This document shows, in pieces, positions 1-4,925 of a stretch of 64,000 bases of DNA (position 1 is its first letter; every line of letters begins with the position of its first letter). This stretch comes from an uncultured Gemmatimonadales bacterium (GTDB lineage: Bacteria; Gemmatimonadota; Gemmatimonadetes; Gemmatimonadales; GWC2-71-9), in contig CAWHFW010000006.1 of assembly GCA_963828735.1 (NCBI GenBank), positions 72,403 to 136,402 of the forward strand, in the 5' to 3' direction. Made by a program: the position numbers and the translations under genes. The notes below the pieces were generated by a model. The model was not told where the DNA came from and made no database searches. It saw only the letters and a list, made by a program, of their open reading frames with translations.

Positions 1-1174
1 CTGGTGCTCTACGGCCGGGGCGATCCCACCTTCGGCAAGCGCTGCTTCTCGACCGACACGATGCGTGAAGGCGCATGCGAGACCGACTCGTTCACGCGCC
101 TTCGCCAGCTGGTCGAAGGACTGCGCGCGCGCGGCATCCACGAGGTCCACGGCGACCTCGTCGGCGACGGCAGCTACTTCGAGCCGACCACCGTACACCC
201 GGGCTGGGAGGCGTTCGATCTCAACTGGTGGTACGCCGCGCCCGTCTCGGCGCTGGGCTTCAACGACAACAGCGTCGACTTCGACTGGGGGCCCGGCACG
301 GCTCCCGGCGCGCCGGCGCTGATCACGATGTCGCCGGACGTGGGTGACTTGACCTTCGAGAACCGCACGGTGACGGTGGCCCGCGGGCGGCGAGTCGGAC
401 ATCGGCGACCGCTTCTACCGCGAGCCCGGCACGCTGCACGTCTGGGCGGAAGGCACGGTGGCGCTCGATCAGCCGACGCGGACCGAATCGTTCGCGATGC
501 CGGACCCCAACCTCTATACCGCTCGGGCGTTGCGGCAGGTTCTGGCCGAGGCGGGCATCGCCATCACCGGCACCACCCGCTCGACTACCGACTCGATGCA
601 ATATCGGCAAGCCCGGAGCGCACCAGCGCTCGCCGAGATCAGCTCGCGTCCATTCCGCGAATGGGTGTTCCCGATCCTCAACCGGAGTCAGAACTGGTTC
701 GCCGAGATGGTGCTCAAGCAGCTCGGACGCCAGTTGGGCCGCGCGGGCTCGTGGGACGAGGGATTGGCGGTGGAGCGTCGCTTCCTGATCGATTCGGTCC
801 GGGTGGACTCGACCGAGTTCAGGCTGCAGGACGGCTCGGGCCTCTCGAGCGGGAACCTGGTGAGTCCGCTCGCCTTTACGAAGATCCTGCGCTTCATACG
901 GTCGCACCCGCGCGCGCCCACCTTTCTCGCCGGGCTGCCGCAGTCGGGCGGCGTGGGCTCGCTTCGAAGCCGCTTCGTCGGGACGCCACTCGAGGGGCGG
1001 GTACGCGCGAAGGACGGAAGCATCGGCGGAGTGAACTCCCTTTCAGGGTTCATCGAGCGGGCCGACGGCCGCGTGTGGACATTCTCGGTGCAGGCGAACC
1101 ACCACACGCAGTCCGGGCGTACCGCGATCATGGCGATCGACAGCATCGTGGTGGAGATGGGTCGGGGGAAGTAG
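1..1174 (+). CDS. dacB: D-alanyl-D-alanine carboxypeptidase/endopeptidase (PBP4, peptidase S13), 5'-truncated, frameshift near 385
   Basis: GRGDPTF, SQNWFAE (SxN), DGSGLS and RAKDG (KTG-like) motifs split over ORFs 4.. and 458..1174. Confidence 0.85.
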
Positions 1175-1876: not shown

Positions 1877-2905
1877 TCAATCCTCCGTCTGCCCGAAGAT
1901 CGCCAGGTTCGACGAATGCCCCGGGTTCACCTTCGCCTTGGGGTTGATGTAGTGCACCGCGTTGTTCACCGCGATGCACGCCTCCGCGGCGCCGGTGGCG
2001 ATGAGCTTGAGCTTGCCGGGATAGGCGGTGATGTCGCCGGCCGCGTAGATCCCCGGCACGTTCGTCTCCATGAGCTGGTTGACCTTGATGTCGGCCTTCT
2101 CGGTGTCGAGTCCCCACTCCTTGATGGCGCCGAGATCCGAGTGGAAGCCGAGGAGGGGGATGACGGCATCGAGCTCGAGCGTCTCCTCCTCCTTGGTCTT
2201 GCTGTTGACGATCGTCACCCGCTCGACCCGCCCGTTCCCCTCGATCCGCTTCACCTCCCAGAACGTCCGCAGGTCGCACCGGCCCTGGCGACACAGCTCG
2301 TGCACCTGATTGATCGTCGCGGCGTGCGCGCGGAAGCCGTCGCGCCGGTGGATCAGCATGATGGACTTGGCGACCCCCTGCAGGTTGACCGCCCAGTCGA
2401 AGGCCGAGTCCCCGCCTCCGACGAGGAGCACCCGCGCGCCCTCGAACTGCTTCGGGTCGAGGACCTTGAAGTAGAGCCCCTTCTCCTCGAAGGCGTCCTC
2501 GCCCGCGATGCCGAGGCGGCGGGCCTCGAAGGCCCCGATCCCGGCCGCGATCACGATGGTGCGCGACGGGTAGTCCCCGCCGTCGGTCTCGAGCACCAGA
2601 TGACCGCCGTGATCGTCCTCGACCCGCCGCAGGCCGGTCACGATCTCGCCCAGGTGGGTGGTGGCGCCGAACTGAAGCCCCTGCGCGGCCATGTCCCGCA
2701 CCAGGTCCTTGGCGAGAACCTTGGGAAACCCGGCGACGTCGAAGATGTATTTCTCCGGGTAGAGCGCCATCAGCTGGCCGCCCAGAGCGGGGAGCGCGTC
2801 GACGATCCGCGCCGACGCGCCCCGCATGCCCGCGTAGAACGCCGCGAACAGGCCGGTGGGCCCCCCGCCGATGATCGAGATGTCCTTCAGGTCCTGCTCT
2901 GCCAC
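1877..2905 (-). CDS. Ferredoxin-NADP+ reductase (thioredoxin-reductase-like, YumC type)
   Basis: GGGPTG FAD motif, LYPEKYIFDV, GGGDSA NADPH motif, PGHSS C-terminus, no CxxC. Confidence 0.85.
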   Translation of the reverse strand: MAEQDLKDISIIGGGPTGLFAAFYAGMRGASARIVDALPALGGQLMALYPEKYIFDVAGFPKVLAKDLVRDMAAQGLQFGATTHLGEIVTGLRRVEDDHGGHLVLETDGGDYPSRTIVIAAGIGAFEARRLGIAGEDAFEEKGLYFKVLDPKQFEGARVLLVGGGDSAFDWAVNLQGVAKSIMLIHRRDGFRAHAATINQVHELCRQGRCDLRTFWEVKRIEGNGRVERVTIVNSKTKEEETLELDAVIPLLGFHSDLGAIKEWGLDTEKADIKVNQLMETNVPGIYAAGDITAYPGKLKLIATGAAEACIAVNNAVHYINPKAKVNPGHSSNLAIFGQTED

Positions 2906-3009
2906 GTGCGCTCCTGCGGTGGACGACGGGGGTTCCGGGACAAGCGGTGGAATGTATAAAAATAGTCGGCGGTGTCATGTGCCCGGGCCCCTCCGGTAGT
3001 GTCGGGTTT

Positions 3010-3038
3010 TTGACTGTAACAGCTTCCGGTCGTAGCTT
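3010..3038 (+). promoter_or_regulatory. sigma70-type promoter for the Cys-rich mini-gene
   Basis: TTGACT-17 nt-TAGCTT. Confidence 0.65.
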
Positions 3039-3073
3039 GGAGGGTGGCGGGCATTCCCGCCAAGGAGGACCCT

Positions 3074-3157
3074 ATGGCAGAGGCAAGCTGCGGCTGCACC
3101 AAAGGCTGTTGCGATACAGGGTGTTGCTGCGGGACCAGCGCCTGCAAGTGCGGGTGA
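3074..3157 (+). CDS. Metallothionein-like 27-aa Cys-rich peptide MAEASCGCTKGCCDTGCCCGTSACKCG
   Basis: Hand translation; 9 of 27 residues Cys; AAGGAGG RBS at 3062-3068; flanked by promoter and terminator. Confidence 0.8.
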   Translation: MAEASCGCTKGCCDTGCCCGTSACKCG

Positions 3158-3180
3158 GCGAGTCCGGTGACTGAGTGAAG

Positions 3181-3208
3181 GGCCGGGGAATGCTCCCCGG
3201 CCTTTTTT
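3181..3208 (+). terminator. Rho-independent terminator
   Basis: GGCCGGGGA-atgc-TCCCCGGCC followed by TTTTTT. Confidence 0.85.
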
Positions 3209-3273
3209 CTGGGCTCGCCCGCCTTGCAGCCGCGGGAGAACACCGTGATGGCCGCTCTGGAGGTGGACGGACC

Positions 3274-3825
3274 ATGTCGATGAAGATCTACACCCGGACC
3301 GGCGACGAGGGCGAGACCGGCCTGTTCGGGGGCGGGCGGGTGCCCAAGGACCACCCCCGCGTCTCCGCCTACGGGGACGTGGACGAGCTCAACTCGAGCA
3401 TCGGGGTCGCCCGCGCGATCGCGCCGCTCGAGTTCTTCGATCCGCTGCTCGAGTCGGTGCAACGGGACCTGTTCGCGATCGGCGGTCACCTCGCCACGCC
3501 CGACCCCGGGAAGGTGGCAAAGGCGCTCGAGAAGGCAGAGCTGTCGGAGGCACGGGTCGCCGAGTTCGAGCGCGTCATGGACGCGGCCGACGAGGACCTG
3601 CCTGCCCTCCGCGCGTTCGTGCTGCCCGGGGGGACGCCCAAGGCGGCCGCGCTGCACCTCGCCCGCACCGTGTGCCGCCGCGCGGAGCGGAGCGTGGTCC
3701 ACCTCGCGCACGAATCCGAGGTGCCGCAACTCTTCGTGGTCTACCTCAATCGCCTGTCGGATCTGCTCTTCACGCTGGCCCGCCTGGCCAACCATCGCGA
3801 TGGCGCGGGCGACGTCACATGGTGA
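3274..3825 (+). CDS. ATP:cob(I)alamin adenosyltransferase (PduO type)
   Basis: KIYTRTGDEGETGL, YGDVDELNS, RTVCRRAER, YLNRLSDLLF. Confidence 0.93.
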   Translation: MSMKIYTRTGDEGETGLFGGGRVPKDHPRVSAYGDVDELNSSIGVARAIAPLEFFDPLLESVQRDLFAIGGHLATPDPGKVAKALEKAELSEARVAEFERVMDAADEDLPALRAFVLPGGTPKAAALHLARTVCRRAERSVVHLAHESEVPQLFVVYLNRLSDLLFTLARLANHRDGAGDVTW

Positions 3826-3832
3826 GCGCCGG

Positions 3833-4925
3833 GTGAACGCGCCGCCGGTCGTCGTCACTCACGCCCTGGGCAGCTATCCGGTGTACGTCGAGCCTGGCGT
3901 GGTCGCCCGGCTCGAGGGGATCCTCGCCGAGCACCTGGACGCGCCGCGGATCGCGATGATCGCGGACAGCGCGGTGTACGGGCTGCTCCAGGCCGGTCAT
4001 CTCGGACGCTCGCCGTGGACCGGGGATGCGCCTTCTGTTTCCCCCCGGGGAAACCTCGAAGACGCGCGACCATTGGGCGCGACTCACCGACACGCTGCTC
4101 GCGCAAGGCTATGGCCGCGACAGCGGGATCATCACGCTGGGCGGCGGAGTGGCCGGCGACCTCGGCGGGTTCGTCGCGGCCACCTACATGCGCGGCGTGC
4201 CGTGCGTGCAGGTGCCGACCTCGCTGCTGGCGATGCTCGACGCGTCCGTGGGCGGCAAGACCGGCGTCGACACGCCGCAGGGCAAGAATCTGATCGGCGC
4301 ATTCCATCCGCCGGTCGCGGTGCTGGCGGACCCGCGCGTGCTGGCGACGCTTCCCGAGCGTGACTATCGCGGTGGCATGGCCGAGGCGGTGAAGCACGGC
4401 CTGATCGCCGACGAGGAGTATTTCGCCTGGATGGAGCGGGAGGCGGACGCGCTCCTCGCGCGGGACGAGGCCGCACTCACGCGGCTCGTACGAAGAAGCG
4501 TCGAGATCAAGGCCGCGGTGGTGAGCGGGGACGAGCGCGAGGCGGGCCGCCGGGCGATCCTCAATGCCGGACATACGGTCGCGCACGCACTCGAGCGCGC
4601 GACGGACTTCGGGATCCCGCACGGCGAAGCCGTGGCGCTCGGCCTGGTGGCGGAATGCGCCCTGGCCGAGGCGGTGGGCGCGGCGGTGGGAGGCGTCGGC
4701 GGGCGAGTCTCGGCGCTGCTCGTCCGGCTCGGCCTGCCGATTCGGCTGGCCGAGCCGGTGGACGCCGACCGGATCATCGAGGGAATGGCGAGCGACAAGA
4801 AGAACCGTTCGGCCCGCGTGAGGTTCGCGCTGGCGAGCCGCCTAGGCGGCATGGATGCACAGGGGAGGTGGACGCGGGAGGCGCCGGAGCCTGCCGTCCG
4901 GCGCGCGCTCGACGCCATCGTCTAG
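3833..4925 (+). CDS. aroB: 3-dehydroquinate synthase, apparent +1 frameshift near 4031
   Basis: GGGVAGDLGGF, PTSLLAMLDASVGGKTG, NAGHTVAHALE, HGEAVA; N-terminus in a different frame. Confidence 0.9.

Follow-up and report, generated by a model that had tools for sequence, protein, structure and literature searches.

A conserved 27-residue, nine-cysteine peptide gene in one Gemmatimonadales genus, a candidate minimal metallothionein-like module

The beta-domain of vertebrate metallothioneins has about 30 residues with nine cysteines and no aromatic residues or histidine, and folds only when metal is present, all in one cluster of the M(II)3Cys9 or Cu(I)6 type. The copper metallothionein of Neurospora crassa (fungal family 8) is a peptide of about 26 residues with seven cysteines that begins C-G-C and holds a single Cu(I)-thiolate cluster. 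In bacteria, SmtA also has nine cysteines; histidine ligands and a zinc-finger-like fold characterize the SmtA/BmtA proteins, whose partner is an ArsR/SmtB repressor. MymT, a lineage-restricted, small and Cys-rich protein that was missed by early annotation, is a proposed Cu(I) binder. Bacterial metallothioneins are regarded as rare, with few families of ~55–60 residues. Those named in a recent article, typically of ~60 residues with ~16% Cys, are SmtA/BmtA (~55–60 residues, ~16% Cys), MymT as the copper metallothionein of Mycobacterium, a Salmonella report, and Pseudomonas proteins (PMC13578184, 2026). Short unannotated Cys-codon-rich ORFs are also found in mycobacteria, where, according to one report, they are polycysteine uORF attenuators, leaderless first cistrons tied to downstream genes (10.1101/834739).

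The window is the whole 64,000-nt stretch of DNA that was analyzed, from the genome of an uncultured Gemmatimonadales bacterium (the source genome). A preliminary description had placed in it, at positions 3010–3208 of the plus strand, a promoter (TTGACT and TAGCTT, 17 nt apart), a ribosome-binding site, a 27-codon open reading frame with nine cysteine codons (the sORF), and a hairpin followed by six T residues. Each of these elements was found at its position, and the unit and its flanking genes are laid out as follows.

1877–2905, minus strand: flanking gene for a pyridine-nucleotide-disulphide oxidoreductase (FNR/TrxR-like)
2992–3009, plus strand: terminator-like hairpin with a T-run, flagged by the terminator scan, directly 5′ of the −35 hexamer
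3010–3015, plus strand: −35 hexamer TTGACT, read from the sequence, with a 17-nt spacer to the −10 hexamer
3033–3038, plus strand: −10 hexamer TAGCTT (family pattern TAnnTT), read from the sequence
3045–3062, plus strand: 5′-UTR hairpin of 7 bp with a 4-nt loop, seen in the fold and abutting the Shine-Dalgarno sequence; absent from the preliminary description
3062–3068, plus strand: Shine-Dalgarno sequence AAGGAGG, 5 nt 5′ of the ATG at 3074
3074–3157, plus strand: ORF of 27 codons plus stop (TGA at 3155–3157), translated as MAEASCGCTKGCCDTGCCCGTSACKCG
3177–3208, plus strand: intrinsic terminator seen in the fold, with a GC-rich stem (3177–3202), a 4-nt loop and T6 (3203–3208)
3274, likely start ATG: flanking gene for a PduO-type cobalamin adenosyltransferase, starting 65 nt past the terminator

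The TTGACT/TAGCTT pair was missed by a consensus promoter scan because TAGCTT matches only three of the six positions of TATAAT. The hairpin at 3045–3062 probably forms the 5′ end of the transcript, and its simplest reading would be that of an mRNA stabilizer. The 66-nt segment containing the terminator folds at −34.2 kcal/mol (z = −3.3), and none of 200 shuffled sequences was as stable. The terminator-like hairpin at 2992–3009 may shield the unit against transcription entering from the 5′ side, or it may be an UP-like element; the CCGGTAG..CCGG-TTTT element 5′ of the −35 hexamer is also present in the closest relatives, genome G070 and metagenome locus L056. As judged from these signals, the unit is built for efficient expression: a sigma-70-type promoter would drive a monocistronic mRNA of ~165 nt with a 5′ hairpin, a strong ribosome-binding site and an intrinsic terminator.

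The G+C content was ~0.63 across the unit (window 2901–3300) and 0.68–0.75 in the flanking genes, and the third-position G+C of the sORF, counted from the sequence, was ~0.74 compared with 0.87–0.95 in neighbor genes. Further upstream, a gene for a PBP4-type D-Ala-D-Ala carboxypeptidase (Peptidase_S13, window 4–1174) is split over two reading frames, with profile positions 86–192 in the frame of ORF 4–1833 and positions 220–440 in ORF 458–1174; a frameshift or sequencing error near 390–460 is therefore indicated. It is followed by a SixA-like histidine phosphatase at ~1300–1833.

The predicted peptide contains nine cysteines (33%), arranged in the order C-x-C, CC, CCC and C-x-C, and has no Phe, Tyr, Trp or His, which bears out the earlier characterization of its composition as metallothionein-like. 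Neither a signal peptide or other export signal nor a hydrophobic stretch was found in its 27 residues. In size and ligand count it equals the vertebrate beta-domain. However, the two show no sequence similarity, and the beta-domain has mainly C-x-C motifs, whereas the peptide has CC and CCC runs; moreover, the former is one domain of a two-domain protein and the latter is a free-standing bacterial gene known from sequence. The Neurospora copper metallothionein is also free-standing and composed of Cys, Gly, Ser and small residues, and thus provides a size precedent, although it is eukaryotic, has seven rather than nine cysteines and lacks CC and CCC runs. SmtA/BmtA are small cytosolic Cys-rich bacterial metal buffers, as the peptide would be, and SmtA also shares its nine cysteines. 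As the preliminary description had pointed out, the peptide is shorter and without SmtA-type histidines; furthermore, it has no PF02069 match and no ArsR/SmtB neighbor in the window. MymT, against which it had likewise been called short, is about twice as long, has His and other Cys motifs, and showed no similarity to it in our searches.

Database searches returned almost nothing. The exact 27-aa sequence was absent from ~15 billion proteins, in line with the claim that the gene had been missed by ORF callers. The sole relative among 1.84 billion representative proteins was a 26-aa sequence (P0004), the single member of its cluster, from a 926-nt contig. No family was matched at E ≤ 1 in Pfam (27-aa and 37-aa forms, PF02069 of SmtA/BmtA included) or in NCBIfam, and no PDB sequence at E ≤ 10. 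PADLOC gave no match, Rfam gave nothing near the gathering score (its weak matches were terminator-like), and the 45-aa stop-to-stop frame, used as query in a word-indexed search, matched none of 5.8 billion clusters. The top score of an Atlas feature search was 0.79, below the level worth following. The core motif strings did not occur in the literature text searched, and no such gene was among the matches listed for metallothionein together with Gemmatimonad*. The sORF family thus appears almost entirely unannotated and, by these comparisons, is a new sequence family without a match to any described metallothionein family, as had been suspected when a possibly undescribed class was proposed.

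The ORF and its Cys spacing are conserved in relatives, which had been put forward as a check: with a profile built from 12 loci, the family was detected in 17 of the 103 genomes that represent this Gemmatimonadales genus, the source genome included. Each of the 17 carries one copy; the count is 16 of 102 when the unpublished genome G078 is left out, and 9 of 46 among high-quality genomes. The genomes searched included four other unpublished ones (G003, G063, G113 and G436), which contained no family member. A blastn search of 101 genus genomes with the intergenic region recovered the sORF segment in 13 others and a remnant in a 14th, and the source genome holds a single copy. A tblastn-type search of 41 relatives with the 27-aa peptide gave chance matches only, and nucleotide and profile searches were needed. 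In metagenome contigs, GCCDTGCC occurs in 139 stretches, 129 of which failed the tblastn filter. Four soil metagenome contigs also carry homologues, and the window sequence itself is present in soil and rhizosphere metagenome runs.

Outside the genus, an order-level sample (401 genomes, 104 genera) gave true matches only in the genus, namely in the source genome and 5 of 25 others. Weaker matches in nine genomes outside it (E 1.5e-4 to 6.4e-3) were off-frame translations without the Cys pattern and were rejected. No match beyond the one genus was found in a phylum-level sample (401 genomes, 147 genera), and no family member was found in viral contigs. A scan for GCCDTGCC in one genome per species (185,579 species) yielded 79 stretches, six of which passed the tblastn filter: four in Gemmatimonadales MAGs of our locus set and two in large Planctomycetota proteins. 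The latter (L035:1028–2848 and L037:3647–4993, on MAG contigs) have Cys-rich GCCDTGCC segments but lie outside the sORF family; one of them matches the Legionella major outer-membrane protein family. The family is thus patchy, with 17 of 103 genomes carrying it, and no genome searched beyond the one genus has it; the gene is therefore dispensable.

The unit was compared among 19 loci, from the source genome, 15 other genus genomes and three distinct metagenome contigs; G078 also has a locus, which was left out of the alignments and of the dN/dS analysis. A Shine-Dalgarno sequence, (A/G)GGAGG, stands 4–6 nt before the start codon in all 19 loci, and all have a stable hairpin (−9.4 to −22.6 kcal/mol) 5′ of it, ending 0–2 nt from the Shine-Dalgarno sequence in 18 of the 19 and 7 nt away in L074. 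The hairpins were folded locus by locus (RNAalifold on a MAFFT alignment misplaced them); their stem sequences diverge between loci while the pairing is preserved. The −10 pattern TAnnTT lies 6–9 nt 5′ of the hairpin in 16 of 18 loci and also in L074, and TTGAC(T/G/C) lies 17–18 nt 5′ of the −10 in 6 of 18. Downstream of the ORF, a GGCCGGG...CCCGGCC stem with a T-run recurs in most loci, at a distance from the stop codon that ranges from ~10 to >80 nt.

All family peptides have 26–28 residues and share the core C-G-C-x-x-G-C-C-D-T-G-C-C-C-G-T-x-x-C-x-C. The C-x-C, CC, CCC and C-x-C motifs are kept in 18 of 18 loci, as is the low-aromatic, Cys-rich composition, and the nine Cys, four Gly, one Asp and two Thr of the core are invariant. 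Of the 21 core columns, 15 show the same amino acid throughout, 14 of them with synonymous codon variation. For the 21-codon core, the mean pairwise dN was 0.067 and dS was 1.69, giving a dN/dS of ~0.04; in 44 of the 153 locus pairs the synonymous sites had reached saturation. The 4–6 residues ahead of the first Cys vary freely between loci. In-frame stops just 5′ of the ATG in several loci fix the start codon and confirm the 27-codon reading. The synonymous changes and the conserved non-Cys residues show that the peptide sequence matters beyond its Cys codons alone. Taken at the codon level, this conservation indicates that the sORF is a real translated gene under strong purifying selection.

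While the peptide is conserved, the neighborhood is not. Where the source window has the FNR-like and PduO genes, other loci have a protein kinase gene in G070, RibD_C in G095 and one metagenome contig, AcrB and Gcw_chp in G104, a response regulator in G067, ribosomal protein genes in G051, G050 and G056, AsnC/EamA in G048, an ArsR-family regulator in G081, S1 in G076, a DapD-like gene in G059, and PadR in metagenome contig L054. Conversely, the gap between the FNR-like and PduO genes, 370 nt here, is ~1.2 kb long with other content in at least eight genus genomes (G018, G112, G056, G045, G087, G047, G019 and G013); the gap of G018 (L014:330–1560) contains an open frame of up to 390 aa without a Pfam match. 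G110 has a decayed copy (L032:1440–1600), in which only the terminator and the final third of the ORF are left and the promoter, hairpin, Shine-Dalgarno sequence and first codons have been replaced. The varying neighbors, the FNR-PduO gaps free of the sORF and the G110 remnant together point to an accessory module that is gained, moved and lost. In six loci aligned with 150-nt flanks, similarity starts just 5′ of the −35 hexamer and ends at the terminator T-run, and blastn end-points agree. The alignment thus indicates that the sORF travels as a self-contained promoter-to-terminator module, as the preliminary description had held. We also observed that a contig from a soil RNA library (run X15) joins position 2977 to 3259 via 134 other letters, which suggests a related strain with an FNR-PduO spacer lacking the sORF unit.

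On balance, we favor the reading of the product as a minimal single-cluster metallothionein-like peptide, drawn from composition and analogy. The peptide has the compositional features of metallothioneins (small size, high Cys content, few or no aromatics, and conserved C-x-C and C-C motifs). In the proposed mechanism, the product would be a cytosolic 27-residue peptide with the nine invariant Cys as its functional core; unstructured alone, it would enclose soft metal ions in one metal-thiolate cluster and thereby buffer or detoxify cytosolic metal. By analogy with the beta-domain, the predicted load would be ~3 Zn(II)/Cd(II) or 4–6 Cu(I) per peptide. With their vicinal cysteines, the CC and CCC runs would be suited to Cu(I), but also to Hg(II) or As(III).

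Two further observations were counted in favor of the metallothionein-like reading. PF02069 was found in none of the 103 genus genomes (Synechococcus elongatus, the positive control, was detected), so that the genus is without a SmtA/BmtA-type metallothionein. Furthermore, a gene on metagenome contig L058 (1384–2019) encodes an FKBP-type (SlyD-like) peptidyl-prolyl isomerase whose C-terminal tail, GCESGCCDTGCCDTGCCDTGCCDPGCSC, consists of GCCDTGCC three times. Since Escherichia coli SlyD has a metal-binding tail at its C-terminal position, this repeat of the core motif sits where the metal-binding tail would be expected.

Counted against the same reading are the patchiness of the family, the lack of sequence similarity to any known metallothionein in Pfam, NCBIfam and PDB, and the lack of a conserved metal neighbor. 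No metal transporter, metal sensor or metal-linked regulator is a conserved neighbor in the 19 loci. The ArsR-family gene of G081 adjoins the sORF in that locus only, and none was found in the source window; its protein has a 64%-identical homologue in the source genome, far from the sORF. An HTH_20 gene near the sORF in L057 is unrelated to the G081 ArsR-family protein. It should also be noted that a Cys-rich composition can serve other roles.

No recognizable metal-sensor operator was identified. A scan of the source genome for TTGACTGTAACAGC gave five sites at two or fewer mismatches, none of them convincing as a regulon, and for GTAAC...GAGAAT, the other promoter-proximal motif scanned, the sites numbered 14 or 0, all weak, and no regulon emerged. 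A GTAAC-containing motif is found near the promoter in about half of the loci, and in some it is repeated as a motif of 19–28 nt (ACGTAACGTTGAGAAT.. in G055 and ..TCATTCTCATTGTAACA in G051). In G055 (L038:3838–4202), it occurs three times within 350 nt, also ahead of neighboring units; in G051 (L026:1405–1660), one copy precedes the sORF and another a response-regulator-like gene; and in L030 it is found in the opposite orientation. The repeated motif of G055 and G051 could act as an operator or as a promoter element common to several units. As for transcripts, six soil metatranscriptome runs contained 12–15% of the words of window 2400–3900, and contigs of four of these runs covered parts of the FNR-like and PduO genes and not 3012–3164, although contigs cannot show absence.

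Could the peptide instead be a substrate or partner of something encoded elsewhere, such as a RiPP or chalkophore-like precursor modified in trans, or a small protein-binding regulator? The extreme conservation of the core fits such a role, and accessory natural-product or regulatory genes are often as genus-restricted and patchy as this family. However, the variable stretch before the first Cys is only 4–6 residues long and therefore does not form a leader peptide, and export signals are lacking. No radical-SAM, YcaO, lanthipeptide or other maturase was found within ~3 kb in the loci scanned, where some neighbor ORFs have no Pfam match, so that neither the leader peptide nor the adjacent maturase of a RiPP precursor (SCIFF, ranthipeptide and methanobactin types) was seen. 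The preliminary description, which had noted neither an export signal nor an adjacent RiPP-modifying enzyme for the source locus, thus holds for the scanned flanks of all 19 loci. The changing neighbors rule out a RiPP precursor whose enzyme is encoded next to it, and we consider the substrate or partner role as a whole unlikely.

A thiol-rich molecule with a non-metal role, either a sacrificial scavenger of oxidants or electrophiles or a reserve of cysteine and sulfur, is likewise unlikely. The high thiol density of the peptide, the stand-alone unit geared to high expression by its strong Shine-Dalgarno sequence and 5′ hairpin, and the absence of linked metal genes would all agree with it. 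However, the invariant Cys spacing, together with the invariant Gly, Asp and Thr between the cysteines, points to a defined fold or cluster rather than to bulk thiols, and a constraint as strong as that measured for the core would be needless for a mere reserve.

The arrangement in the source window, with a Cys-rich ORF followed by a terminator and the PduO start 65 nt beyond, resembles that of a Cys-sensing leader peptide, in which stalling at Cys codons would control read-through into the PduO-type gene. However, what lies downstream changes with the context, in part to genes on the opposite strand, which largely refutes such an attenuator. In addition, the non-Cys residues are as conserved as the Cys, the stop-to-terminator distance is variable, the predicted fold shows no antiterminator and no alternative structure in which the ORF pairs with the terminator arms, and PduO has no link to cysteine supply. 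The unit also differs from the mycobacterial polycysteine uORFs in having its own Shine-Dalgarno sequence and terminator, variable neighbors and a conserved peptide sequence. We regard this explanation as very improbable.

The last alternative, that GC-rich intergenic sequence holds an open frame by chance here, or else a non-coding RNA element, has a negligible probability. The abundance of Cys-rich frames in the genome and the lack of an RNA contig over the sORF might speak for it, but it is refuted by codon-level conservation, as the changes are overwhelmingly synonymous, a Shine-Dalgarno sequence and start codon are present in every locus and no Rfam family reached the gathering score. The source genome has a G+C content of ~70% and contains 98 stop-to-stop frames with at least seven Cys per 26 residues, nearly all of them Arg/Ser/Pro-rich off-frame readings. 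Composition alone is thus no proof, and the reality of the sORF follows from its conservation. One frame outside the window (G000:C5:2100413, plus strand), of 60 residues with a CCRR repeat and 12 Cys per 26 residues, probably reflects a nucleotide repeat read out of frame.

We therefore return to the metallothionein-like reading and to what it would mean. In its fullest form, this reading would make the product the smallest bacterial metallothionein encoded by a gene, with nine thiolates in one cluster and a length of 26–28 residues. It would found a family without sequence relationship to SmtA/BmtA and MymT, encoded by a ~220-bp promoter-to-terminator module that has been re-sited to many different contexts across the genomes of a single Gemmatimonadales genus and carries no mobility gene. 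We offer this combined claim tentatively, as possible rather than probable. The peptide is small enough for chemical synthesis, which makes its metal chemistry directly testable. That a conserved 27-residue peptide with nine Cys was skipped by gene callers suggests that annotation of soil bacteria systematically passes over metal-buffering micro-proteins. The complete ~220-bp gene is kept intact while its genomic address changes and, if the proposal is true, it would represent a minimal portable metal-buffer cassette.
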